DNA from: a virus
Lineage: Duplodnaviria; Heunggongvirae; Uroviricota; Caudoviricetes
Length of the DNA: 41,949 nt
Virus record (IMG/VR): IMGVR_UViG_2558860473_000005
Location: 1 to 41,949 of that record
Strand: one strand, 5' to 3'
Positions within the stretch are counted from its first letter, which is position 1. Every line of letters begins with the position of its first letter. A program made the position numbers and the translations under genes. Positions 1,998 to 41,949 of this stretch are shown here, piece by piece. Below the pieces are notes generated by a model. The model searched no databases. It had not been told where the DNA came from and was given only the letters and a program-made list of their open reading frames with translations.

Positions 1998-2013
1998 GGA
2001 ATCGAACCTGCAA
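1998..2013 (-). other. Second tRNA-Arg fragment (T-arm region, GGAATCGAACCTGCAA), not a complete tRNA
   Basis: 16-nt match to the reverse complement of the argW T-arm; flanking sequence is not tRNA-like. Confidence 0.5.
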
Positions 2014-2020
2014 ATCAGGC

Positions 2021-2043
2021 AATAAAAAACCGCATTGATGCGG
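2021..2043 (-). terminator. Rho-independent terminator at the end of the leftward early operon
   Basis: Hairpin CCGCAT-loop-ATGCGG followed by a U-run on the minus strand, just downstream of the 2103 stop. Confidence 0.5.
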
Positions 2044-2102
2044 CGATGGTAGGTCTGGATATCTTGAGAAATGAACTGGCCTCATCGAGTGTGAGGCTGT
2101 GG

Positions 2103-2447
2103 TTAGTCCTTGCGTAACTCGCTAATTCTTCTGTAAGTCTCTGGTGCTTTGTTTCCGTGTATCTTCATTTCAGACTTCAACAGAGCAACGAGGGAATCCC
2201 ATTCGTTGAGGATGCCTTTGAATGCCGGAACGCGCTTTGCAACCTTGTCGAATGAATCCCTGATTTCTGGAATCTGCTCAACAAGTGCAACGCATCGTCG
2301 GAAATCGGCTGCGTCATGTGGAGCGCCGAAGTGATGACCATAGATATTCTTTTTCAGTCCACATGCGATTGAGGCAAGAGTTGCGCTACTGATGCCGACA
2401 TCGCCAGTCGATTGCCATTTCAAAACCTTCATAGCCAAATCTGACAT
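2103..2447 (-). CDS. Hypothetical phage protein (114 aa from the internal start; track ORF extends to 2474)
   Basis: ORF track 2103..2474; GGAGA RBS 6 nt upstream of the ATG at 2447, whereas the 2474 start lies inside an upstream terminator hairpin. Confidence 0.55.
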   Translation of the reverse strand: MSDLAMKVLKWQSTGDVGISSATLASIACGLKKNIYGHHFGAPHDAADFRRCVALVEQIPEIRDSFDKVAKRVPAFKGILNEWDSLVALLKSEMKIHGNKAPETYRRISELRKD

Positions 2448-2460
2448 TTCTTGTCTCCAA

Positions 2461-2482
2461 TAAAAAACCGCCATCAGGCGGC
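2461..2482 (-). terminator. Rho-independent terminator between the zinc-ribbon gene and the 114-aa gene
   Basis: Hairpin CCGCC-atca-GGCGG followed by a U-run on the minus strand. Confidence 0.5.
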
Positions 2483-2547
2483 TTGGTGTTCTTTCAGTTC
2501 TTCAATTCGAATATTGGTTACATTGTTTTCATATATGAATAAATAAA

Positions 2548-2727
2548 TTAGCTTTTTTCGTTGCCTTCGCGATCTTTATTAATTTTGACAAACTCGTTTT
2601 TACCACGCTCTCCAAATGCGTCTTTAGAGTCGTTGTATCCGCAATCGCAGCACACATAATCACCAGACCATCCACGCATTGTTTTTTCTTTTGCAATATT
2701 TCCAGAACCGCATTTTGGACAAGACAT
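2548..2727 (-). CDS. Small zinc-ribbon protein (CPKCG ... CCDCG), 59 aa
   Basis: Two CxxC pairs; GGAGG RBS 7 nt upstream of the ATG at 2727 (track ORF 2548..2760 starts at a TTG). Confidence 0.55.
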   Translation of the reverse strand: MSCPKCGSGNIAKEKTMRGWSGDYVCCDCGYNDSKDAFGERGKNEFVKINKDREGNEKS

Positions 2728-2823
2728 ATCACTACCTCCAAAGCATGAGTGAGATGACAACGTAACATTGATTGGAGATTAACAATAGATTGCTGATGTA
2801 AAAGATATGTATAAGCTTCGCTT

Positions 2824-3603
2824 TCAAAGTGGAGGCTCTGGTAGCGGCATCCAGTGAGTCATTTCATGGGCAAGGATATCTGAGTTAAGTTCCGTCCAAC
2901 TATTCCAATACCCAGATTCATCCCACCATTTAACCTCGACATGCTCGCCGTCTGTCACTAACACATCAGCATACCCTTTCGGCATTCGCTCACTACAGCT
3001 TATCCAACCATCCGGAGTTACCGGAGAGTTGCCAGACAGTGCGTTCTGCAATCGTTCCAGCTTAACGTATTCCTGAACCCTGTTTCCGTCGCACGCCTGA
3101 AGCCATTGCACAGCCTTTTGCGCATCAGTGTGAAAGGTACAAGTGCGACCGTCATCAAATTGCATTTCGTAGAGGTCAGCAACCTGTTTAAACTGCGTTT
3201 GTGGCAACTTGTAAGCCTGGCTTGCATGTACGGCACCATAGAGCATGGCTGCACGGCAGGCGTTCCATCCGACAGCTTTTCCGTGTTCAAACGCGCTGTC
3301 AAAGTCATCATCCATTTCCATCGCATCAGGCACAGATACCGTCTCTGGAGGGGCGGCGTAAAGCGGAGTTACGGTAATTTCGTACTCGTTTATATCCTCG
3401 TCGCTGATATTTGCGAAATAGCGAAGGATGCCTTTCTCTCCACGACTACGAGCGTCAGAGTCCTGAATGATATACGCCACAGGCTCTGCTTCCAGCGATG
3501 CCAGCGCAATCCGTGCCAGTTCCATTTGTTCACCACGGGTAAGCCCGTTTTCAAGCGGATTTTTAATGAACAATTCAATACGTTCTTTGGTAATAGTGGC
3601 CAT
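2824..3603 (-). CDS. Phage protein with C-terminal DUF551-like domain, 259 aa
   Basis: C-terminal segment DGWISCSERMPKGYADVLVTDGEHV...WMPLPEPP resembles DUF551 of lambdoid early-region proteins. Confidence 0.6.
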   Translation of the reverse strand: MATITKERIELFIKNPLENGLTRGEQMELARIALASLEAEPVAYIIQDSDARSRGEKGILRYFANISDEDINEYEITVTPLYAAPPETVSVPDAMEMDDDFDSAFEHGKAVGWNACRAAMLYGAVHASQAYKLPQTQFKQVADLYEMQFDDGRTCTFHTDAQKAVQWLQACDGNRVQEYVKLERLQNALSGNSPVTPDGWISCSERMPKGYADVLVTDGEHVEVKWWDESGYWNSWTELNSDILAHEMTHWMPLPEPPL

Positions 3604-3605
3604 GG

Positions 3606-3797
3606 CTATTTCACCTTAATCTCAACATTTCGCAGTTTTAGCTCCACTGGCAGGTCTGACTTTCCGGTTAAAGCTAATGCGAGATTTTCTGGAGTAATGA
3701 GAGCTGTTATTGTTTTCCCCATCGCCAGACGAATAATCATTCGTATTTCGCGATCGTCACATGCTCCTGGTCGAACAATTGATATCTGTCCGTTCAT
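3606..3797 (-). CDS. Small hypothetical phage protein, 63 aa
   Basis: AGGAG RBS immediately upstream of the ATG at 3797; start sits 1 nt after the stop of the upstream Ea22-like gene (translational coupling). Confidence 0.5.
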   Translation of the reverse strand: MNGQISIVRPGACDDREIRMIIRLAMGKTITALITPENLALALTGKSDLPVELKLRNVEIKVK

Positions 3798-3798
3798 C

Positions 3799-5049
3799 TC
3801 ACTCTCCTTTGATGCGAATGCCAGCGGCGCGGATTGCATCGATGACTTCAGAAACTTTGTATGCCATTACCGTTTGGTAATCATCGTGAAAATCTGTTCG
3901 ATGAAGCATGCTGCTACGTTCCGGGAGCAGTATTTCCCGCGCTTCCAGTTCAGCAATCCGCTTCTCTGCTGCTTCCAGCTCATCCAGCAGCGCGTTATCT
4001 TCATCCTCTCTCAACACCACTGTGTCGAAGCTTTCGGCCTGCTTTTTGATTTTTGCAATCAGCGCCTGTTTGTTGATGTTGCTCATTTGGCGGACTCCTG
4101 TGCTCCAAGTTTTGCCCCATACTTCAAGGCTGTTATGCGAAATCAGCGCTTCGCGAACGCATGGCCTGTAGTAGTGATGGAAAGCGAAGGTCAGGCCGAG
4201 TTTTGTCGGGCGATCGTGTTTGCCAAGCAATCCCAGGCGAATACAGATAGTCGTTGCCGTGTAGCCAGAGTGATAGCCAGCAGCACGCTTCATAACTGTT
4301 TCTGCCAGAATGGTGCGGAAATCAGTGCGCCCGAAATTGGTACCTTCGAAAGCGGCGTTAACCACTTCGTCTGTAAGATGTGAATCATCAACTATGCTCA
4401 TACCGCTTCCCCCCTGACGAAGCTGGGCGGCGAACTCGTCGCATACGTGCGTTAAAGAGCAAATCTGGATAGCAGGATGCTCGCGCAACAATTCAACACC
4501 CTGCGCCCGCACTTCAGCCAGGAAGGCGTCGGTGGCTGGGTGCTCTGTCTGGCTATGCATTGCCCATTCAGATAAGTACTCGAAGCAACGGCGAAACTCC
4601 TGCCAATCACTGCACATGTTTAGGTTTCCGCCTTTACACTCGAACTGGTAATTCTCTAAACGGTCTGCAAACGCTCTGCCATTCTCTATGGCACCAAGTG
4701 GAGTTTCAGACTTCAGCCAAGCATTCTCCGCAGCCAGCGCCGCGAGATTAGTCTCAAGCTCTGCAATTCGACACATAGCATCAATATTTGTGTCCTCCAG
4801 GCGCTTAATTTCACCAAGCAGCTCCAGTGCAACCTTTGGGTTGAACGCGGCAACATGACGAGCGTTGTTCTCTGCATTTTTCTGTCCATCAAAGCCGGTC
4901 CATTTGATAACGTCTTCACATCGTTCATCACCGGGCGTGTGCACCGCATAAGTACCAGTATCCGTCGAAATAAATGCGACCCATTCGTCTGGTGTTGCCT
5001 TTTCTGCCGCCTCACGCAGTACCTGATAGTCAATTGTCATTCTCGCCAT
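3799..5049 (-). CDS. Ea22-like (ead/Ea22 family) early-region protein, 416 aa
   Basis: N-terminal IDYQVLREAAEKATPDEW motif typical of Ea22-like proteins; coiled-coil-rich. Confidence 0.7.
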   Translation of the reverse strand: MARMTIDYQVLREAAEKATPDEWVAFISTDTGTYAVHTPGDERCEDVIKWTGFDGQKNAENNARHVAAFNPKVALELLGEIKRLEDTNIDAMCRIAELETNLAALAAENAWLKSETPLGAIENGRAFADRLENYQFECKGGNLNMCSDWQEFRRCFEYLSEWAMHSQTEHPATDAFLAEVRAQGVELLREHPAIQICSLTHVCDEFAAQLRQGGSGMSIVDDSHLTDEVVNAAFEGTNFGRTDFRTILAETVMKRAAGYHSGYTATTICIRLGLLGKHDRPTKLGLTFAFHHYYRPCVREALISHNSLEVWGKTWSTGVRQMSNINKQALIAKIKKQAESFDTVVLREDEDNALLDELEAAEKRIAELEAREILLPERSSMLHRTDFHDDYQTVMAYKVSEVIDAIRAAGIRIKGE

Positions 5050-5702
5050 CCTTCACAGTTGTAATCACTACAGCCTTCAAAATCATATGGGCTGTACTGC
5101 CAGGTTATTTTTCCGCAATGCGGACAATTCCAACGCACCTTCCCGCTTCGCGACTTCTTTCTTCTGTTCTGCTCTTTCAACCAGTCAGGCATGACCAAAC
5201 CTGCGCCCTGAACCATTGTTCTGCGGTTAAATTTATTGATATTGAACGTCCGGCGCTTTGCTGCATCAGCAATGGAAAATGGCAACCAAACTATTCCTGG
5301 TTCGTTTTTGTTGGCGACGCTAAAGATGGTAGCTTTACTGAAGTCATCTGTTGGCAATCCACCGTGTTGAAGCCAGTAAACATCGTTGCCGTTCCAGCTA
5401 CCTTTTTTGTAGGCCACATACGCAGTGCAATCTGACTTAATCAGGCTTTCTGTAGGGATGTACTGGCAATCAACGTGCCACACTGCCATTGCATCCACGC
5501 TATCAGCGCAAACAGGCTGATCGATATCTCGCCCACAATTCCAGGCTTTTTGGGCTTTTTCCAGCGTGTAAACATGAGCGCGATCGATATCAGAACTGTA
5601 ACCATTGCCGTTATGGCAATGGAATGAAGCGTTATTGCCCACAGTTTCACGCGAGCACATCATGTAAAAACGGTTAGTCACTGGCTGCCTCCTTTGCGCC
5701 AC
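5037..5702 (-). CDS. Hypothetical protein with C-terminal CxxC...CxxC zinc-finger motif, 221 aa
   Basis: ORF in the leftward early operon; C-terminal NCPHCGK...CSDYNCEGW. Confidence 0.55.
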
Positions 5703-5841
5703 ATCGCATTCAGATATTTGTTTTCATTCACTGATGGAAAAGAATTTCTCTTAAGCAATTCCTCTCTCGATGGCATTGGCTTTACGCGTTGGCGAATAAT
5801 CATTTCTGCCGGAAGAATGCCGGGATTGTATGCAAGTCCTC

Positions 5842-6123
5842 TCATGATTTACTCTCCACGAACTGGTCAATAGCCATGCTAAGTGACACACCTAAAGTCT
5901 CGATATGCTGCTGAATATCCTGTAGCGTCTGCGCCTGAGATAACAGGATTTCACGGTTGCATAATTCTTTAACCAGATGCTCAAACTTGCTGTAATAACC
6001 GATACGGCTTAGTGTTTCTTTCCCTGCATTCTCGCCTTCTTTGATAATTCCTCTTTCACTAAGAATCAGGTCGTGTTTGGTTCCGGTAATAACGTATTTT
6101 CCGAGGTCGATGTTTAGCTTCAT
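5842..6123 (-). CDS. Hypothetical phage protein, 93 aa
   Basis: ORF in the leftward operon with consistent spacing to neighbours. Confidence 0.5.
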
Positions 6124-6139
6124 TGTTAATTATTCCATG

Positions 6140-6454
6140 TTAATTTATTCGTATGCCTGCTCTTTCTTCATCGAGTTTTTTTAGCTTGTATCGCATAGCT
6201 CTTACTGAATAAATTGAGCGGCAGGTTGCAATTGCTATTTCTTCTGCGGAGAACTTACCGAAAAGTGATACTTCGGCTCTTGTCCATCGTCTTCCACGAA
6301 GTCGGCTAACAATGTCAGCGCCAATCCTTGTTGCTTTCGCCATTACTGCTTTTTCAGTCCTTTCCAGTTTTTCAGCGATAACTTCAACTGGCATTGTTGC
6401 CGCTACTTCGCGCAAGAAATCGACTTCCCATTTCTCCCAAGGAGTCTTTTTCAT
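6140..6454 (-). CDS. Hypothetical protein, possibly a tandem Myb/SANT-like DNA-binding fold, 104 aa
   Basis: Two repeated W/R-rich helical segments; inference only. Confidence 0.45.
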   Translation of the reverse strand: MKKTPWEKWEVDFLREVAATMPVEVIAEKLERTEKAVMAKATRIGADIVSRLRGRRWTRAEVSLFGKFSAEEIAIATCRSIYSVRAMRYKLKKLDEERAGIRIN

Positions 6455-6465
6455 AGGCGATACCG

Positions 6466-6954
6466 TTATTTGATAAGAAGTGAAGGTTTCCCAACTTTGA
6501 GTTGAGCGCCGGGGATATTTATTCCTGCTTTTAGTTGGTGTTTGATTGCCAGTTTGTCGGCTTTAATTGTCGTTTCAAACTCAACGTATTCAGGAGGAAG
6601 GGCGCTTGAGTCGATTATTTCTACAATTTCTGATGGTTTGCGGATTGTTACCTGGTGAATACCTGCTCGAATCTTTTTCTTGCCAACCATTTCAAGCGAT
6701 GAGGCTATATATGCCATAATGCTATCAATCTTATTTTGAATTACTGCTGCTCGTTCATTCAGTGACTTTGCCTCGTCCTTGAGGCGTTCAGCATAACCAG
6801 ATTCATTTTTAATAATGGCAAGAAGTTGCTCTATTTTATCGGTAAATTCTCCTTCCATGCCTTCTATTGTGTCAGCAATCATCTCTGGTTCTAAATCTGA
6901 ATCCATCAATTTTGCGTATTCATTGGCTATTTCATATAGTTTGCTCACTGGCAA
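6466..6954 (-). CDS. Siphovirus Gp157-family protein (companion of RecT-type recombinases), 162 aa
   Basis: Recalled family similarity; overlaps the RecT gene stop as in phage recombination modules. Confidence 0.65.
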   Translation of the reverse strand: MPVSKLYEIANEYAKLMDSDLEPEMIADTIEGMEGEFTDKIEQLLAIIKNESGYAERLKDEAKSLNERAAVIQNKIDSIMAYIASSLEMVGKKKIRAGIHQVTIRKPSEIVEIIDSSALPPEYVEFETTIKADKLAIKHQLKAGINIPGAQLKVGKPSLLIK

Positions 6955-7834
6955 CCTCCAGTTTCGCTTTGCATTCTATGTAAATGGCTTGTACGTTCTG
7001 CTGCAATTTCATTCCAGATGTCAGGCGATATGCTTCTGCAAAATATCGCTTCAAATCATCCATGTTTTCTGCCTGAGCCATTTCATCACAAAGAAGTTGT
7101 GCTTTTTCCATAATTTCCTGCTGGCGTTTCCGTTCATCTTCGCGGATATCTTCCTCTGATTTGTGCGGCATAACTGGTTCCTGATGCATACCTTCATCCT
7201 CGTTAAGCAGGTGAATGGCATTATCCAGTCGCTGGGCTTTAGGCCAGTATTTGCTGGCGCGTTTAACTATTGTTTTACGCGCCATCTCTTCCCAGAATGT
7301 TTTCCACGGTCCATTCTTTGCCTTGCTCGTTGCTTCCACAGCTTTAATTTCTGCCAGACTCATTTCTTCAGTCAGGTAGTCACCATCTGCTGTTTTAACC
7401 GTGCAATAACCTCCAACAATAGAGCCTCGCTCACCAAATGCGTTGTATTTGTGGGTTGGTGCTGAATCAAGGCCATTTGATTCATAGGTGTCGTTTGAGT
7501 ACACCAGTTTGCATTGCCCCCACTTAATTGATCCTGTCGATTGCGCAAGATGAAGTAATCCCATGTAACTGATATCAAGGCACACCATGCCGTCGCGAGG
7601 AACCAGATAAGCCAGTTTGCTGGCCGGGTTTAAGGTGATGCCGATCGCCGCAACATTGATGATGGCGTTCTGTGCGCTGGTTGGATTTGCCAGTGCCGTT
7701 TTAGCCAGGTAATCATTTTTCTGGAAATACTGAATTGCAAACTGGCTTTCCTTAGCCCATGTCACCGTCTGTTCAGTCAATGCTCCGCAGAATAACTGCT
7801 CCTGCTGTTTAACGAATTCAACGATATTGCTCAT
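6932..7834 (-). CDS. recT: RecT-family single-strand annealing recombinase, 300 aa
   Basis: Conserved RecT-like core (LAYLVPRDG...); position matches lambdoid recombination modules. Confidence 0.8.
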   Translation of the reverse strand: MSNIVEFVKQQEQLFCGALTEQTVTWAKESQFAIQYFQKNDYLAKTALANPTSAQNAIINVAAIGITLNPASKLAYLVPRDGMVCLDISYMGLLHLAQSTGSIKWGQCKLVYSNDTYESNGLDSAPTHKYNAFGERGSIVGGYCTVKTADGDYLTEEMSLAEIKAVEATSKAKNGPWKTFWEEMARKTIVKRASKYWPKAQRLDNAIHLLNEDEGMHQEPVMPHKSEEDIREDERKRQQEIMEKAQLLCDEMAQAENMDDLKRYFAEAYRLTSGMKLQQNVQAIYIECKAKLEVASEQTI

Positions 7835-8142
7835 GCAGCTTCTCCATAAATATGTCTGCGTTTGAATATTGCGAAGGCATATTCAGCCTTAACTCTTTCG
7901 GTTATTGCATCCCAGAACCATTCAGCGGCTTTTTCCTGATAGTTACAGTCATCATCTTCCAGCCAGTCGATAGCGTCCTTAGTGTGTTCATCTGGTTTAT
8001 ATGAGCGAAGCATTTCGCTTATTGGGTCGCAACGTTTGCAGAGGCGATCAACTTCACTGTTGATTCGTTCGTAATCTTCATCAGTAAAACTTGCGATGAT
8101 TTGCGATATTTCACGCTTATCATTCAGAGTCAGAATCATCAT
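7831..8142 (-). CDS. Hypothetical early protein, 103 aa
   Basis: ORF overlapping the RecT start by 4 bp. Confidence 0.5.
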   Translation of the reverse strand: MMILTLNDKREISQIIASFTDEDYERINSEVDRLCKRCDPISEMLRSYKPDEHTKDAIDWLEDDDCNYQEKAAEWFWDAITERVKAEYAFAIFKRRHIYGEAA

Positions 8143-8227
8143 CTTTCTCCTGTTCTTTGTGCTGATTGAGCATTTTGTTCATCTGACGAATGAATTCTTC
8201 GTCTGACCAGCTATCTGTAAAACTCAT
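8120..8227 (-). CDS. Small ORF, 35 aa (MSFTDSWSDEEFIRQMNKMLNQHKEQEKDDDSDSE), acidic C-terminus
   Basis: Hand-translated; ATGA overlap with the cIII-like stop and overlaps the next gene start; below the ORF-track size cut-off. Confidence 0.3.
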   Translation of the reverse strand: MSFTDSWSDEEFIRQMNKMLNQHKEQEKDDDSDSE

Positions 8228-9050: not shown

Positions 9051-9083
9051 TGCCAAAAATAAAGGCCACCATCAGGCAGCCTT
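9051..9083 (-). terminator. Imperfect hairpin plus U-run (tL1-like)
   Basis: Hairpin AAGGCCACC-atca-GGCAGCCTT with two mismatches, followed by a U-run on the minus strand; overlaps the stop of the 9072..9323 gene. Confidence 0.3.
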
Positions 9084-9331: not shown

Positions 9332-9658
9332 TCAAATAAGTGGTTTGCTGCCTAATTTCATTTTCTGGCGACCAACACAAGTCACACCCATTTCACTGCG
9401 TGGCTTGCTGTACCATGTGCGCTGATTCTTGCGCTCAATACGTTGCAGGTTGCTTTCAATCTGTTCGTGGTATTCAGCCAGCACCGTAAGGTCTATCGGA
9501 TTCAGTGCGCTTTCTACTCGTGATTTCGGTTTGCGATTCAGCGAGAGAATAGGGCGGTTAACTGGTTTTGCGCTTACCCCAACCAACAGGGGATTTGCTG
9601 CTTTCCATTGAGCCTGTTTCTCTGCGCGACGTTCGCGGCGGCGTGTTTGTGCATCCAT
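9332..9658 (-). CDS. N: Antitermination protein N (lambda-type), 108 aa
   Basis: Begins MDAQTRRRERRAEKQAQWKAANPLLVG (arginine-rich boxB-binding motif); essentially lambda N by recall; start set at the internal Met of the track ORF. Confidence 0.9.
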   Translation of the reverse strand: MDAQTRRRERRAEKQAQWKAANPLLVGVSAKPVNRPILSLNRKPKSRVESALNPIDLTVLAEYHEQIESNLQRIERKNQRTWYSKPRSEMGVTCVGRQKMKLGSKPLI

Positions 9659-9768
9659 CTGGATTCTCCTGTCAGTTAGCTTTGAGTAACGCGCCGTGAT
9701 GCTTATCTCCACGGTTGCTGTCTTGCAGCTGCATTTCGCGCTACTCAAAGCTTTCTGCTTTGAATGCT

Positions 9769-9992: not shown

Positions 9993-10652
9993 TTAACTAA
10001 ATGTCTCTTCAGGCCACTGGCTGGCGATAACTTTCCCTACTACGGAACAGCTATCATTGCATGGAATCATTGGATATTGCGGGTTTAGTGGCTGTAGGAA
10101 CACCTGACCGCTATCCCTGATCAGTTTCTTGAAGGTAAACTCGTCACCACCAAGTCTGGCTATGCAGAAATCACCTGGCTCAACAGCCTGATCAGGGTCA
10201 ACGAGAATTAACATCCCGTCAGGAAAGCTTGGCTTGGATCCTGTTGGCGCGGTCATGGAATTACCTTCAACTTCAAGCCAAAACGCACAATCACTGGCTT
10301 TTTTGGTTGTGCTGACCCATCTCTCCGCATCACCTTTGGTAAAGGTTCTAAGCTCAGGCGAGAACATCCCGGCCTGAACATGAGAAAAAACAGGGTACTC
10401 ATATTGTTTTTTAACGGGGGCAGATGAGTATTCGCCAACAGGTGAAAATGTACCGTCGTGGTTGAATGAGACGTTATCAATACCAAGGTATTTAAACACC
10501 ACACCAATCTCGTCAAGAGATGGATGACGAGATCCGCGCAACCAGTGACCAATTCCACCCTGCGTCATACCAAGCTCTTCAGCTAACTTCTCTTGAGTTA
10601 TGCCGAGCTCTTTCATTCTGGATCTAGCCAGTTCATACCATTTCATTTTCAT
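9993..10652 (-). CDS. cI: CI-type prophage repressor (HTH N-terminal domain plus S24/LexA-like C-terminal domain), about 219 aa
   Basis: C-terminal half ([37 protein letters not shown]...) is near-identical to lambda CI by recall; N-terminal DNA-binding domain is different; start taken at MKMKWYEL (10652) or two codons later (10646). Confidence 0.85.
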
Positions 10653-10763
10653 ACCCCTATTATTACGCTCTGTACTAAAACCATCCATGCACAAGATGTA
10701 TTTTTTGTTTGCATTCTAAAAGTACATATCGTATTATTGTTTCATGGTTACTATGGAGGGCAT
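10653..10763 (+). promoter_or_regulatory. OR/PR/PRM region: two GTAC dyads (ATTACgctctGTACT 10662-10676; AGTACatatcGTATT 10721-10735) and putative PR (-35 TTGCAT 10709-10714, -10 TATTAT 10732-10737)
   Basis: Divergent cI-cro intergenic region; the dyads share half-sites with the OL dyad; PR has a 17-bp spacer and is overlapped by the second dyad. Confidence 0.5.
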
Positions 10764-16929: not shown

Positions 16930-17549
16930 GACTCGAAAGTGTAGCTAAATTTCATTCGCCAAAAAGCCCGATGATGAGCGACTCACCACGGGCTACGGCT
17001 TCTGACTCTCTTTCCGGTACTGATGTGATGGCTGCTATGGGGATGGCGCAATCACAAGCCGGATTCGGAATGGCTGCATTCTGCGGTAAGCATGAACTCA
17101 GCCAGAACGACAAACAAAAGGCTATCAACTATCTGATGCAATTTGCACACAAGGTATCGGGGAAATACCGTGGTGTGGCAAAGCTTGAAGGAAATACTAA
17201 GGCAAAGGTACTGCAAGTGCTCGCAACATTCGCTTATGCGGATTATTGCCGTAGTGCCGCGACGCCGGGCGCAAGATGCAGAGATTGCCACGGTACAGGC
17301 CGTGCGGTTGATATAGCAAAAACAGAGCAGTGGGGGAGAGTTGTTGAGAAAGAGTGCGGAAGATGCAAAGGTGTCGGCTATTCAAGGATGCCAGCAAGCG
17401 CCGCATATCGCGCTGTGACGATGCTAATCCCAAATCTTACCCAACCAACCTGGTCACGCACTGTTAAGCCGCTGTATGACGCTCTGGTGGTGCAATGCCA
17501 CAAGGAAGAGTCAATCGCAGACAACATTTTGAATGCGGTCACACGTTAG
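16926..17549 (+). CDS. Q: Late-gene antiterminator Q (lambda-type), 207 aa
   Basis: Sequence essentially lambda Q by recall, including the zinc-binding cysteines. Confidence 0.9.
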   Translation: MRLESVAKFHSPKSPMMSDSPRATASDSLSGTDVMAAMGMAQSQAGFGMAAFCGKHELSQNDKQKAINYLMQFAHKVSGKYRGVAKLEGNTKAKVLQVLATFAYADYCRSAATPGARCRDCHGTGRAVDIAKTEQWGRVVEKECGRCKGVGYSRMPASAAYRAVTMLIPNLTQPTWSRTVKPLYDALVVQCHKEESIADNILNAVTR

Positions 17550-17828: not shown

Positions 17829-18330
17829 TAACAGGTAAGAGCATTCTCCCTTATGGGGCTTGGCTTAAATGCACCGAGTGCTCTTAGCGTTGTGGCAGCA
17901 CAACGATAGTTTTCGTCAGAGTTGGCGACTTTGCGGTTTTTTAGAAACTGACCACAAAGATAAATGCAAACGATGATGTTGTTCTGATGGCGGCGTAATA
18001 GCCTGTAAGTCAGCAAGGTCTTCCGACTCCTTGTAAACAAATTCGGCGCACTGGCCCGGTGTGATTAATAATGGGCACACAACAGGTAAGAGCATTAAAG
18101 AACTGGCAAAGAGCTTAACGGTCTGCGAAAGCATTTCTTAGTGGCACAACTGGCCGGTACAACTGAGTGCTCTTTCCGGTGTGGTGAATGCGCAGGCTGA
18201 TGCGCGCAGGAGAGCTTCGGAAGAACAAGGTGCCTGTATACAAGCCGGAGATCAGCGCCGGCCACCACAGCCAAATCCACCCAGAGTAAAACCGTTGTTC
18301 ATCCTTACCATTCCCTCAGTATTTTGGGCT
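17829..18330 (+). repeat. Tandemly duplicated, diverged ~250-bp unit in the late leader, marked by AACAGGTAAGAGCATT direct repeats (17830-17845, 18081-18096)
   Basis: 16-bp perfect direct repeat 251 bp apart; each unit carries a GAGTGCTCTT...GTTGTG-like segment. Confidence 0.5.
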
Positions 18331-19841: not shown

Positions 19842-20280
19842 TAGCGATAATTCTACTCATCATCCTTCACATCTGGCTCTGTAGACAGGGTGGTGATCAC
19901 TTCTGGAGTGAATCCAGATTAAACATCTCATTGCTGATGCTTGAAGTTAAGCATATGGCGCGCGGCAAGGGGCTGCGTTGAGATAAGAGCCAGTTCATTA
20001 CAAAGCCTATCTACGGGTGGGCTTGATAATGAAACCGGAATTTATTCTGGGTAACCAGTTACGGCAGTACAGCGAAACAACCCAAGCCAGAAAGTGGGGA
20101 AATAACACTGGCAGCCACTGAAAGATGAACCTCCAGCCTTATGGCAAAAAAGATTCTTTGTGGTGGCGGACTGATGGAAAGACATCGGATAGAATAAAAC
20201 AGTGGCTAGGGTAGCTGCCGAAAAGCGGAATCGTCACCGCCTGCCACTGAATCTATGACGAACAACTAGACGAGGTTGTG

Positions 20281-36573: not shown

Positions 36574-36577
36574 AGTT

Positions 36578-36609
36578 GAAGCCCCAACTGCTGGAACAGT
36601 CAGGGCTTC
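36578..36609 (+). promoter_or_regulatory. Extended hairpin in the arc-ant intercistronic region
   Basis: GAAGCCC...GGGCTTC with inner ACTG/CAGT stem; no U-run on either strand. Confidence 0.35.
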
Positions 36610-36641
36610 GGTATCAACAAAACTTACGAGGTATTATTGAT

Positions 36642-37532
36642 ATGTCAAGCTTAGCAAAGTCAACTGTAAATTGCACTAATAGCATCATCATTTCTGACGT
36701 CAAGATTCATATGGATTCAGAGGGGCGTTACTCGCTTAATGACCTTCATGTAGCGTCTGGGAAGGAGGAAAAACATCAGCCAGCTTTCTTCATGCGTAGA
36801 AATGAAACTATTGAATTAATTAATGAAATTTTTAATTCTGCGGATATGCAGAATAAGAATCCCGTCCTTTCTAAGAAAGGTCGATATGGTGGAACCTACG
36901 TGTGCAAGGAGCTTGTTTACTCCTACGCCATGTGGATTAGTGCATCCTTTGCGCTGAAGGTTATCCGTGCATATGACGCAATGGTTACTGCCACACAAGA
37001 TAGGAAGGCTATTGGAGGTAAAACTTCAGTAGCTGAACGCACACCGCTACGAGATGCAGTAAACATGCTGGTAGGAAAGAAAGGACTTCGCTATGACGAT
37101 GCATACAATATGGTTCATCAGCGTTTTGGTATTGACAGCATTGATGAACTTTCAATTGAACAAATCCCGCTGGCCGTAGAGTACATCCACAGGGTAGTGC
37201 TTGAAGGTGAGTTCATTGGCAAACAAGAGAAGAAAACCAACGAGCTTTCTGCAAAAGAAGCAAACAGCCTTGTATGGTTATGGGATTATGCCAACCGTTC
37301 ACAGGCATTATTCCGCGAACTGTATCCGGCGCTAAAACAAATTCAATCGAACTATTCCGGCAGATGCTACGACTACGGTCATGAGTTCTCGTATGTTATC
37401 GGAATGGCGAGAGACGTTTTAATAAACCACACACGAGATGTTGATATTAATGAGCCAGACGGACCAACGAATCTTTCCGCATGGATGAGACTTAAGAATA
37501 AAGAATTACCTCCTTCAGTACATAACTACTGA
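36642..37532 (+). CDS. ant: Antirepressor Ant (KilA-N domain N-terminus), 296 aa
   Basis: KilA-N-like segment ([24 protein letters not shown]...); downstream of arc as in P22 immI; GAGGT RBS. Confidence 0.8.
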
Positions 37533-39453: not shown

Positions 39454-39476
39454 GGGGGGGATTATTCCCCCTGTTT
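39454..39476 (+). terminator. Terminator between the convergent tailspike and acyltransferase genes
   Basis: Hairpin GGGGGG-attatt-CCCCC followed by TGTTTTACTTT; overlaps the acyltransferase stop. Confidence 0.55.
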
Positions 39477-40595
39477 TACTTTCCTCATATCCACCAGTTT
39501 ACCAGGGATGCTCATAAATATCTTATTTCTAATCTTGTTAGTAAGTATCACTTCAATATATTTATGCGAAAGAAATGCAATAAAAATTGATAAAATTAGT
39601 AAAATAGTGAACCCGTATACATTGTGCATCACACCTGGATTATTAGCCTCAACCTGCCATGAAATGTAACTACCTACCTGGTTATGAAGCAGATACCATG
39701 AGAAGGAAATATCACCAAGCATTACAAAAAATGATGGTGTAATTTTTGTTATAACTTCATCATTTATTACGAACGCCACTAAGAGGAAGTATGCAATGAT
39801 GCCTGTCTTTAAATTATAACCTTCAATAGAACCATTGAAGACTGCAGTCATAAAAATTAATGCCGATATAGCAGTGAATGAGTATTTTAATCTATTGCTC
39901 CATGATTTTGCTGAACGCACTGTGTGCCCAGCAAGGATGCCTAAAGCAAATTCAATTACTATCGGATTTGTTAAAAAGCTAAGTTCTGGAGTACCAGTTT
40001 TATAACCTGAAGTGGATAATGTTACATTTCCAGTCAACATATATCCTACAAGGATAGTTGTCATTATCCATACGACTATGCCAGAGGTTCTTTTATTGAA
40101 TAATAAACAAAGTGCGAATACAAGATAGAAGTATAATTCATAGTTAAGCGTCCATCTAATAACAAATATACCACCAGCATCAACATACAAAGGAGGGTAC
40201 GCATCCGTAAAAGGAGAGAATGTTAAAGCACTCAGTAAGTTTTCCACCTTAGCTTGGTCAACGAAGATTCCAACTTCCCATGTAAAGTAGAAAGCTGTAA
40301 AGAGAGCAATAAAATATGTAGGAAAAATCCTTGTGAGTCTTTCTACGGAAAAGAATATAGCAGACTTTATACCAGATGGCTTACGGCTAGTGATATGCAT
40401 CATAATAAAACCACTTATTACGAAGAACAAATCAACACCAGCAGAACCCCAAGATAAATATTTATTAGGGATAGTTAAATCTCCATACAATGGTGATAAC
40501 CAAAATCTGTAGTGAAAAAGAACTACAGACAATGCAGCTAATCCTCTAAGTATCTGTACTGAGCTAAGTTTATTGTTCATTATTAAACCGATCAC
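39462..40595 (-). CDS. Acyltransferase family 3 (OafA/Oac-like) integral membrane O-acetyltransferase, 377 aa
   Basis: Multi-TM protein with acyltransferase-3-like N-terminal motif (ILRGLAALSVVLFHY); very AT-rich by eye; between tailspike and int, as oac is in Sf6. Confidence 0.75.
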   Translation of the reverse strand: MIGLIMNNKLSSVQILRGLAALSVVLFHYRFWLSPLYGDLTIPNKYLSWGSAGVDLFFVISGFIMMHITSRKPSGIKSAIFFSVERLTRIFPTYFIALFTAFYFTWEVGIFVDQAKVENLLSALTFSPFTDAYPPLYVDAGGIFVIRWTLNYELYFYLVFALCLLFNKRTSGIVVWIMTTILVGYMLTGNVTLSTSGYKTGTPELSFLTNPIVIEFALGILAGHTVRSAKSWSNRLKYSFTAISALIFMTAVFNGSIEGYNLKTGIIAYFLLVAFVINDEVITKITPSFFVMLGDISFSWYLLHNQVGSYISWQVEANNPGVMHNVYGFTILLILSIFIAFLSHKYIEVILTNKIRNKIFMSIPGKLVDMRKVKQGE

Positions 40596-40791: not shown

Positions 40792-41949
40792 TCACTCCAC
40801 CTTTTCATCAAGCCAGTCCGCCCACCATTGCATCATTTCTCTGCGCTTATCGAGATACTGAGCATGGTTGTAAATCCCGCGCACAGAACCGCCGTTGGCA
40901 TGTGCCAGCTGCACTTCAATAGCGTCAGCAGGCCATTCGTGCTCGTTCATAATCGTGCTGAATTCATGCCTGAATCCGTGACCGCTTTCCAGACCTTCAT
41001 AGCCGATTTGTTTGATCACAAGCAATACCGCGTTCTCGCAGATTGGCTTCTTCTTATCGTTGCGCCCGGCAAAAACAAACTCTGAGACTGGTTTGGTGAT
41101 TGAGCTTAGCGTAGTGAGAAGTTCAACTACCTGGTCTGACATAGGAACCACATGAATTTTGCGTCCCTTCATCACGCTGGCGTCGATGGTGATAATCCTG
41201 TTTTCAAAATCGACGTTCTTCCATAGCATAGAACGAAGCTCTTTCGTTCTTAGGGCTGTGTAGCGTAAAACTTTGGTCGCAATGAGCGATACGATACTTC
41301 CTGAAAATGTTGCCAGTGCTTTGTTGAATGCCGGGATCTGGTCTGCAGGAAGAAACGGGAAGTTCTTCTTGCGGTATCCTTTCATGGCGTCAGCAAGGTC
41401 AGGTGCCGGGTTATATTTAGCCCTGCCGGTGACAATAGCGTAACGGAAAACCTCGCCGCATCTTCTGCGGGCTTTATTGGCTCGTTCCATTGCACCGCGA
41501 TCTTCAAATCTGCGGATTACTTCCAGCAGTTGCATTGGCTCAATATCCTGAATTTCAAGGCCGCCGATGATAGGTAAAATGTCGTCATCAAACATTTTTG
41601 CAAGTTCAGTCGCATACCCTACTGACCATACTTGCTTCTTGTGCTCGTACCATTCCTTGTAAATCGCACTAAAGGAATTGTTGTTAGACGAAGCCTTTTT
41701 CGCCTTTACCGGATCGATGCCAACCGAGATGTCTTTCCTCGCGGTCCATGCCTTATCCCTTGCCTCCTGCAAAGTCATAAGCGGATATTTTCCTACGGTC
41801 AGTATTTTTTCCTTACCGTCAATCTTGTAGCGAAGCTGCCATACCTTTTTCCCGGATACAGGGACATAAAGGTACAGGCCATTACCATCGAGAAGGCGGT
41901 ATGGTTTTTCTTTCGGCTTTGCTGCTTCAATCTGCTTAACGGTGAGCAT
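40792..41949 (-). CDS. intS: Tyrosine integrase (P4-type phage integrase family; IntS/Sf6 Int-like), 385 aa
   Basis: N-terminal SAM-like domain and C-terminal catalytic domain with conserved R...HGFRH...Y residues; start codon at the last 3 nt of the window. Confidence 0.85.
   Translation of the reverse strand: MLTVKQIEAAKPKEKPYRLLDGNGLYLYVPVSGKKVWQLRYKIDGKEKILTVGKYPLMTLQEARDKAWTARKDISVGIDPVKAKKASSNNNSFSAIYKEWYEHKKQVWSVGYATELAKMFDDDILPIIGGLEIQDIEPMQLLEVIRRFEDRGAMERANKARRRCGEVFRYAIVTGRAKYNPAPDLADAMKGYRKKNFPFLPADQIPAFNKALATFSGSIVSLIATKVLRYTALRTKELRSMLWKNVDFENRIITIDASVMKGRKIHVVPMSDQVVELLTTLSSITKPVSEFVFAGRNDKKKPICENAVLLVIKQIGYEGLESGHGFRHEFSTIMNEHEWPADAIEVQLAHANGGSVRGIYNHAQYLDKRREMMQWWADWLDEKVE

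Follow-up and report, generated by a model that had tools for sequence, protein, structure and literature searches.

Does an open reading frame (ORF) of 416 amino acids (aa) in the early region of an Escherichia coli prophage encode one unusual Ea22-like protein, or several proteins, and what might the accessory genes around it do? The ORF lies in a tailed-phage genome (Caudoviricetes), IMG/VR virus record IMGVR_UViG_2558860473_000005, positions 1 to 41,949 of which were analysed and are called the window here. An earlier, sequence-only reading of this DNA had described positions 3606-5702 as a cluster of large accessory early proteins (a 416-aa Ea22-like, a 259-aa DUF551 and a 221-aa zinc-finger protein, with a coupled 63-aa gene) and had suggested that host-takeover and anti-defence genes are placed there. 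The comparisons described below indicate that the 416-aa ORF is three coupled genes (Ea22-like A, phrog_18088 and short Ea22-like B) joined in frame at two runs of G. Taken as a whole, the region is an ordinary example of lambdoid mosaicism among accessory genes. Two of its features are of modest interest, the phrog_2457 family and a fusion that depends on tract length. The parts of the ORF are as follows.

3799..5049, minus strand: composite ORF of 416 aa, in which three genes are fused in frame.
4402..5049, minus strand: module 1, an Ea22-like gene of about 216 aa (residues 1-216), PF13935 and phrog_368.
4087..4401, minus strand: module 2, the phrog_18088 gene (product MSIVDD...), 105 aa, phrog_18088 at 3.8e-53.
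3799..4086, minus strand: module 3, a short Ea22-like gene of 95 aa, with C-terminal matches to phrog_1667, phrog_11761 and phrog_20344.
4409..4414, minus strand: G-run 1, G6 (C6 on the plus strand), 8 nucleotides (nt) upstream of the module 2 ATG.
4115..4118, minus strand: G-run 2, G4 (C4 on the plus strand), near the 3' end of module 2 and 31 nt before the start of module 3.

Compared with PHROGs one by one, the modules of the 416-aa ORF give matches of essentially full length. Module 1 is composed of an Ead/Ea22 N-terminal domain, a helical region and a C-terminal domain that ends in ...FAAQLRQGGS. It has a net charge of -16 and an isoelectric point (pI) of 4.7, and it is matched by positions 2-238 of the 239 in phrog_368. 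The Ead_Ea22 family PF13935 scores 77.3 bits against a cutoff of 27 and covers residues 5-110 only. The sequence-only reading was right about this domain and wrong in assigning the whole ORF to a single Ea22-like gene. Residues 1-215 correspond to complete Ea22-like proteins of 233-273 aa in relatives, and three homologues (P0123, P0125 and P0229) stop at query residue 215 with the ending ...LRKGGSQ or ...LRKGGNQ. Residues 217-314 match positions 4-102 of the 109 in phrog_18088. The counterpart of module 2 is a standalone 105-aa gene in E. coli prophages (WP_072020654) and is a separate coding sequence (CDS) in records L005 and L006; its DNA is rare, turning up in only 2 of the 5426 complete E. 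coli genomes. Module 3 begins with its own Ea22-type leader (MSNINKQAL...), continues with a coiled-coil segment and ends in ...AGIRIKGE, the canonical tail of Ea22. Residues 322-416 correspond to the C-terminal part of other Ea22-like proteins, the C-terminus of the module recurs in P0124, P0146 and P0231, and the L005 copy is annotated by NCBI as a partial ead/Ea22-like CDS.

The signals for separate translation are also in place. A Shine-Dalgarno sequence precedes both internal ATGs: the G-run itself for module 2 and AGGAG, 8 nt upstream, for module 3. Two complete E. coli genomes are 99% identical to the window over 745 nt; in them separate genes are annotated, with ATGA stop/start overlaps. 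The 416-aa ORF starts at the ATG at 5049 or at a second ATG at 5040, the latter with an ATGA overlap on the stop codon of the 214-aa gene that precedes it. No full-length homologue of the ORF was found among 5.8 billion proteins (1442 relatives, best coverage 51%), and no gene on record has an identical product. The AlphaFold2 model of the whole ORF is poor, with a predicted local distance difference test score (pLDDT) of 49.9, and was left out of the fold search; the long helices predicted at residues 56-136 belong to this low-confidence model. Two plus-strand ORFs, at 3106-4383 (425 aa, opposite the Ea22-like and DUF551 genes) and at 4974-5435, are treated as shadow ORFs. Only the first 42 residues of the former match a PHROG (phrog_23547), and the latter matches none.

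The two junctions are polymorphic among close relatives. The sole length differences between the window and the 99% identical record L005 are two 1-nt G indels, one at each G-run. Seven records including the window, otherwise about 97-99% identical, were compared. At G-run 1 the length is G5 in L005, L006, L007 and L101, G7 in L014 and L102, and G6 only in the window. At G-run 2 it is G3 in L005, L006, L007 and L101, and G4 in the window and L014. Each of the additional Gs moves the reading frame of the gene before it into that of the gene after it. With the rest of the window sequence unchanged, G5 at G-run 1 would give a product of 216 aa ending in ...QGEAV and G7 one of 220 aa ending in ...QGGKRYEHS; only G6 fuses. 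The G4 allele of L014 yields another fusion, the 401-aa P0121 with a DUF551 end. Judged from these alignments, the variation in tract length at the G-runs is genuine. An origin of the fusion by a G5-to-G6 slip alone was dropped; it is replaced by three lengths at junction 1 together with a second tract at junction 2.

Variation of this kind raises the question of whether the fusion in the window is itself meaningful. It may be an artefact, or the mark of a decaying locus, if a homopolymer error at 4409-4414 (possibly also at 4115-4118) or a neutral frameshift that arose recently in a silent prophage joined the frames and three proteins are really made. The fused product is found nowhere else, G6 is seen in one of the seven records, both differences from the 99% identical relatives are single bases in G-runs, and both internal genes have kept their own Shine-Dalgarno sequence and ATG. 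We nevertheless rate this explanation as rather unlikely. The high-identity alignments elsewhere in the window contain no unpaired homopolymer indels in coding sequence; therefore, the window sequence is not generally error-prone, and the only two such differences fall in a stretch without an ORF of at least 120 aa. G4 is also found in the independent assembly L014, where it produces P0121, and the G6 frame preserves the family-consensus ending ...LR(K/Q)GGS. Whatever the status of this instance, G-run 1 truly varies (5 or 7) among independent records.

It is very improbable, in our view, that the G-runs form a slipped-strand switch, that is, a contingency locus that toggles the Ea22-like proteins between split and fused forms and diversifies early-protein function in the phage population. 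Such a switch would fit the lengths of 5, 6 and 7 at one tract and 3 and 4 at the other in seven sequences otherwise about 97-99% identical, and the position of the tracts 8 and 31 nt upstream of coupled start codons. It would also fit the different module 1 C-terminus or fusion that each length gives. However, runs of 4-7 G are short for high-frequency slippage, the seven records may in part share ancestry, the fusion has been seen once only, and little would change upon switching because the downstream genes start independently. As a separate observation, the two unpaired homopolymer differences from the close relative L008 that lie outside the Ea22 region are at 18053 (GG versus G) and 18430 (A7 versus A6). 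They sit between a 207-aa ORF that ends at 17549 and the lysis genes; the L008 counterpart of this ORF is annotated as 'antitermination protein'.

The genes upstream of the composite ORF show how such modules are joined.

5037..5681, minus strand: 214-aa gene (phrog_2457; P7 Upf87.6 family), phrog_2457 at 2e-118, positions 2-220 of 222.
5678..5845, minus strand: DUF2737 gene, upstream of the 214-aa gene, PF10930 at 111.8 bits.

The 221-aa zinc protein of the earlier reading is a real gene, and its product is 214 aa long when started from the GTG at 5681. This start has GGAGG 7 nt upstream and a GTGA overlap with the DUF2737 stop codon, and the homologues are 214 aa long. The last codons of the DUF2737 gene (...WRKGGSQ and stop) form a conserved junction cassette, AAAGGAGGCAGCCAGTGA, together with the Shine-Dalgarno sequence and start of the 214-aa gene. 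Among loci L015-L094, 36 have a recognisable start motif, and in all of these the unrelated upstream genes end in ...GG(S/N/I)Q and stop within a shared GGAGGCANCCAGTGA junction. This junction (window 5670-5705) is where ribosomes bind and begin translation of the 214-aa gene; the final codons of the upstream genes are thus part of the ribosome-binding cassette of the gene that follows. The other side of the 214-aa gene was surveyed at 77 IMG/VR loci where a close copy of the gene has an ORF downstream of it. For at least 73 of them, the start of that ORF falls inside the final 13 nt of the 214-aa gene, and its product begins with the Ea22-type leader MARMTIDYQ(A/V)LR..., followed by very different bodies. 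Short conserved junctions thus mark off the cassettes, and such junctions are the classical boundaries of lambdoid mosaics, as in comparisons of HK97, HK022 and HK620. A junction scan of a genome collection that holds one genome per species found nothing.

The 214-aa protein is of interest in its own right. It is predicted to contain tandem alpha/beta domains (approximately residues 5-71 and 88-145), a basic helix and a C-terminal zinc ribbon, and the segment before the zinc ribbon has a net charge of +8. The cysteines are arranged as CxxC...CxxxxC (C193-x2-C196 ... C211-x4-C216) and not as CxxC...CxxC, the motif given by the sequence-only reading. C193, C196 and C211 are invariant in the family alignment and the fourth, C216, is not. 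A 92-member alignment of the wider family shows conserved residues FY, G.GY, R..D.P, VD.Q, GND, R and C..CG...C....C. Purifying selection acts on the gene: across its 54 distinct alleles, the ratio of non-synonymous to synonymous polymorphism (pN/pS) is 0.23. The AlphaFold model is confident (pLDDT 91.7; predicted template modelling score, pTM, 0.75) and contains two similar alpha/beta units, a helix at 173-186, and predicted short strands at 189-192 and 199-202 with hairpins at the cysteines. By hhalign the two units are a tandem duplication (P = 1.5e-4), which can be seen plainly by eye in the homologue P0384. Structure prediction, which the earlier reading had proposed as a check, thus gave a confident model without a PDB analogue for this protein and failed for the 416-aa ORF.

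Searches with the 214-aa protein yielded no match in Pfam, NCBIfam or PADLOC, and no structural analogue of its model in the PDB. In BFVD, only unnamed small phage proteins resemble one of its domains. Its profile finds weak matches only among the zinc-ribbon entries of Pfam and the PDB (eL43-type and others, E 0.01-0.2). DUF2849 (PF11011) reaches 16-19 bits against a cutoff of 22.5 on either tandem domain of divergent family members; it is below the gathering score, is absent from the window's own protein and is itself uncharacterised, so it carries no functional information. A family-wide scan for weak matches returned only assorted zinc ribbons and this sub-threshold DUF2849, and no Pfam domain was found in ten longer or fused family members. 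The P7 homologue Upf87.6 has been noted as a 'putative tyrosine protein phosphatase', and this assignment was rejected. The cysteine of its FHC motif varies across the family, with R, A, G or L in its place in homologues, the window protein has Tyr at the Arg position of the phosphatase HCx5R(S/T) loop, and there is no phosphatase Pfam match.

The family is widespread. An exhaustive profile search gave 1144 clusters (50% identity) at E <= 1e-3 and 271 at E <= 1e-10. Copies at 94-98% identity occur in lambdoid, P22-like, Stx and P1/P7-type phages, and distant homologues occur in Vibrio and Pseudomonas phages (28-44% identity), Aeromonas prophages (36-38%) and Acinetobacter genomes (50-55%). P7 Upf87.6 is 97% identical to the 214-aa protein and is followed by an Ead-like gene (Upf88.3), as in the window. 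P7, and with it P1-like plasmids, differs in replicon and regulation: the prophage is a P1-type plasmid, and the 'hea' operon that holds the gene pair is under a C1 operator. No Ea22-like gene follows the distant homologues, and most of them still lie in early regions, for example in the following contexts.

Vibrio phage D96a: exonuclease, Gam-like, 214-aa homologue, DNA methyltransferase.
Aeromonas prophage: DUF3799 exonuclease, RecT, two unknown genes, 214-aa homologue, Dam, RdgC.
Yersinia prophage: repressor, YfdP, YfdQ, two unknown genes, 214-aa homologue, xis, int.
Acinetobacter: 214-aa homologue in a prophage early region.
Pseudomonas phage Dolphis: 214-aa homologue after a GIY-YIG endonuclease.

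One metagenomic homologue lies just upstream of terminase genes.

Downstream of the composite ORF the order of genes becomes that of HK620.

3606..3797, minus strand: 63-aa gene at the position of HK620 hkaF, phrog_1222 at 1.3e-40, positions 1-63 of 63.
2824..3603, minus strand: 259-aa DUF551 gene, PF04448 at 58.1 bits against a cutoff of 22, residues 199-258.
2548-2760, minus strand: Lar-like zinc-ribbon ORF of 70 aa, 60 nt downstream of the DUF551 gene, strong match to phrog_2945.

The 63-aa gene of the earlier reading is borne out by its full-length phrog_1222 match and by its ATG, which stands 1 nt past the Ea22 stop codon, behind GGAG. The ORFs of 221, 416 and 77/63 aa do lie on the minus strand within 3606-5702, as the sequence-only reading had placed them, and the 259-aa DUF551 ORF lies outside that interval. 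The DUF551 protein has a net charge of -22 and a pI of 4.5. Its PHROG matches show N-terminal modules common to other ea-region proteins, and its residues 36-135 recur inside P0121. An Ea22-like gene, a 63-aa gene and a DUF551 gene stand in the same order in HK620 (hkaG-hkaF-hkaE) and among the P22 ea genes, and DNA identity with HK620 is 94% across the 3' end of hkaG, hkaF and the 5' end of hkaE. HK620 differs in the body of the Ea22-like gene and, upstream of that body, in the 214-aa and DUF2737 genes, and it matches about 18% of positions 2000-8200. The DUF551 C-terminal domain is shared with YfdS of the CPS-53/KplE1 early region (yfdPQRST), and YfdS-type heads share the module 1 C-terminus in L005 and L014. 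YfdS is, in contrast, a much shorter protein than the 259-aa one. The Lar family PF14354 scores 22.9 bits on the 70-aa ORF, below its cutoff of 28.6, and is a lead only. The equivalent region of L008 has a gene annotated as Lar family, and phage Louie too bears a Lar-like annotation.

All of these genes belong to one early-left transcription unit, for which the relevant features are given here.

9993-10694, minus strand: cI-type repressor, upstream of the accessory genes.
9867-9839, minus strand: pL-like promoter, upstream of the accessory genes.
9332-9748, minus strand: N homologue, upstream of the accessory genes.
6932-7834, minus strand: RecT, at the top of the early-left transcription unit.

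Minus-strand terminator-like hairpins are found at 9083, 8484 and 8446, and the next one is only at 2484-2465, after the Lar-like ORF. No terminator-like site was found on the minus strand from 8427 to 2484; therefore, RecT (6932-7834) to the Lar-like ORF (2548-2760) form one early-left transcription unit. With N, a pL-like promoter and a cI-type repressor upstream and no such site in between, the leftward early operon of the sequence-only reading holds. Its description of the cluster as accessory also stands, and the cluster is highly mosaic: an Ea22-type gene with a variable body comes after the 214-aa gene in at least 73 of the 77 loci surveyed, and many phages match the DNA, each over only pieces of the region. 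The accessory genes are tightly packed, with overlaps or gaps of 1-13 nt. These early ORFs are real genes, each with a very strong match to a phage family by sequence comparison. The closest DNA matches to positions 2000-8200 are Escherichia phages vB_EcoP-611R6, Gally, HK140 and HK620, each of which covers at most 59%; such partial coverage resembles the usual lambdoid mosaic picture.

The element as a whole is an E. coli prophage of the HK620/P22-like (Lederbergvirus-type) group. Its ends are marked by three features.

1-1248: sucrose permease gene (LacY family) of the host, adjoining the prophage.
1778-1978: TorI/HkaC-type excisionase, at one end of the element.
40792-41949: integrase, at the far end, opposite the excisionase.

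Excisionase and integrase also lie at opposite ends in KplE1 and HK620, and the likeness to HK620 extends to prophage type, the TorI/HkaC-type excisionase and the P22-like structural genes. The window prophage carries a P22-type tailspike, an antirepressor and the sar RNA. The csc and dsd loci are the neighbouring host genes in its relatives. The sar RNA, the P22 immI antisense RNA (Rfam RF00262, 66 bits against a cutoff of 43), is on the minus strand at 36574-36640 and adjoins a KilA-N/P22_AR_C antirepressor-like gene at 36576-37532. An int-alpA small RNA match (Rfam RF02996, 41 bits against a cutoff of 35.8) is on the plus strand at 20199-20261, between the lysis and terminase genes. An Acyl_transf_3 acyltransferase gene on the minus strand at 39462-40595, between the tailspike and integrase genes, is likely an O-antigen-modifying (serotype-conversion) gene.

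What could these accessory proteins do? The statement that Ea22 and DUF551 proteins are functionally uncharacterised, made in the sequence-only reading, is too strong, although no mechanism is known. Deletion of ea22 in lambda and Phi24B favours lytic development and has been reported as a pro-lysogenic phenotype of the gene (PMC7093339). The structure of the C-terminal domain of lambda Ea22 has been solved by nuclear magnetic resonance, and Ea22 has been described as a mosaic of a shared N-terminus and coiled coil with variable acidic C-terminal domains, including one Stx-phage variant with DUF551 (PMC10834534). YfdS, the DUF551 protein of CPS-53, has been linked to H2O2 sensitivity and contributes to inhibition of initiation at oriC when over-expressed (PMC4776307); these phenotypes are those of the much shorter YfdS. 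The window genes resemble lambda and Stx-phage ea22, genes of the exo-xis region, in their early position in the pL operon, in an Ead/Ea22 domain followed by predicted helical, coiled-coil-like segments, in the leader (IDYQVLREAAE in the window, INSQALREAAE in lambda), in the terminal ...AGIRIKGE, and in acidic character and mosaic architecture, including DUF551-bearing variants. They differ from lambda in that the window ORF comprises two Ea22-like genes and an unrelated 105-aa gene fused in frame. BLASTP of lambda Ea22 against the window modules aligns the leader and N-terminal region at 25% identity and the terminal 8-17 residues (...AGIRIKGE). The C-terminal domain of lambda Ea22 has no similarity in the window modules by BLASTP, and no PDB chain is found at E <= 1.

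The reading that we put forward is one on which we are evenly divided. The region is a set of translationally coupled, individually exchangeable accessory cassettes in an N-antiterminated pL transcript, and it would combine an Ea22-type developmental role with a nucleic-acid-binding 214-aa protein. Each cassette is an ORF with its own ribosome-binding junction. Recombination at the short conserved junctions, of which three were seen here (...GG(S/N)Q with stop and GTG, the Ea22 leader and the AGIRIKGE Ea22 tail), would shuffle cassettes among lambdoid, P22-like and P1/P7-like phages. The Ea22-like proteins may be acidic coiled-coil oligomers that, soon after infection or induction, bind a host factor and, by analogy with lambda and Phi24B Ea22, may bias development to lysogeny and host survival. 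The 214-aa protein may bind nucleic acid via its +8 basic helix and zinc ribbon, with the tandem alpha/beta domains binding a partner, and it may act in DNA transactions beside neighbouring recombination, end-protection or methylation genes. None of the accessory genes would be essential for lytic growth.

Several points weigh against this reading. The window Ea22-like modules share with lambda Ea22 only the leader/N-terminal region and the last 8 residues. Because they do not contain the lambda C-terminal domain, the transfer of a pro-lysogenic function to them is weak. Nucleic-acid binding by the 214-aa protein is suggested by charge and by the zinc ribbon, and zinc ribbons also mediate protein contacts. 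The statement that this protein has no known fold covers the PDB and BFVD. The neighbourhoods of its distant homologues are heterogeneous, and two metagenomic ones are uninformative. The G6 state is unique to the window and could be a sequencing error. Finally, no experiment or homology ties the accessory proteins to a mechanism. No homology to a housekeeping or other characterised function, the outcome that the sequence-only reading had named as contrary to its own view, was found in searches of Pfam, NCBIfam and PHROGs or by PDB sequence search and fold search. PDB sequence searches with the 214-aa profile and with the 416-, 259- and 77-aa proteins gave nothing, or zinc-ribbon noise.

The same region could instead be an anti-defence cluster, in which the acidic Ea22-like and DUF551 proteins and the zinc-ribbon protein inhibit host restriction or immunity early, for example as DNA mimics or nuclease blockers. 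The early-left operon is the site of Ral, Gam and Abc-type functions, and relatives carry Ral and anti-RecBCD genes there. The sub-cutoff Lar-like ORF 60 nt downstream of the DUF551 gene and the Lar family gene in L008 point the same way, as does the acidity of the proteins (net charges of -16 and -22, pI 4.5-4.7), although neither acidity nor mosaicism is a specific sign. The modules vary to an extreme degree, which suggests diversifying selection, and distant homologues of the 214-aa protein adjoin DNA methyltransferases. Against these stand the absence of any sequence or fold match to a characterised anti-restriction or anti-defence protein and the fact that the only genetics on the Ea22 family gave a developmental, pro-lysogenic phenotype (PMC7093339). 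The PADLOC models cover defence systems and not anti-defence, so it is uninformative that six of the region's proteins hit none of their families at E <= 0.01. No relevant literature was found on Upf87.6, phrog_2457 or hkaG, or on Ea22 with anti-defence. The host-takeover and anti-defence role proposed by the sequence-only reading is thus circumstantial (a sub-threshold Lar-like neighbour, acidity, mosaicism and distant methylase neighbours), and we judge it improbable.

A bolder version of the cassette reading concerns the 214-aa protein and strikes us as decidedly improbable. In this version the protein would represent a structurally new early-protein family, widespread among temperate phages of Gammaproteobacteria, would bind nucleic acid and would form a functional pair with the coupled Ea22-type protein, for example a sensor-effector pair that sets lysis-lysogeny or blocks a host DNA-targeting system. 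The G-runs would then be a slippage switch that re-wires the Ea22-like partners.

By itself, this result opens or settles no long-standing question. For annotation, it averts the entry of a '416-aa Ea22-like protein' into databases as a new architecture, when it is really three coupled genes at unstable G-runs. For lambdoid phages, it gives a base-pair view of how conserved junctions that carry a ribosome-binding site delimit the cassettes of the early-left region. The phrog_2457/Upf87.6 family, which has no Pfam model, is large, with at least 1144 clusters that extend from Escherichia to Vibrio, Aeromonas, Acinetobacter and Pseudomonas phages. Its confident fold without a solved analogue makes it a reasonable target for structural and functional work.

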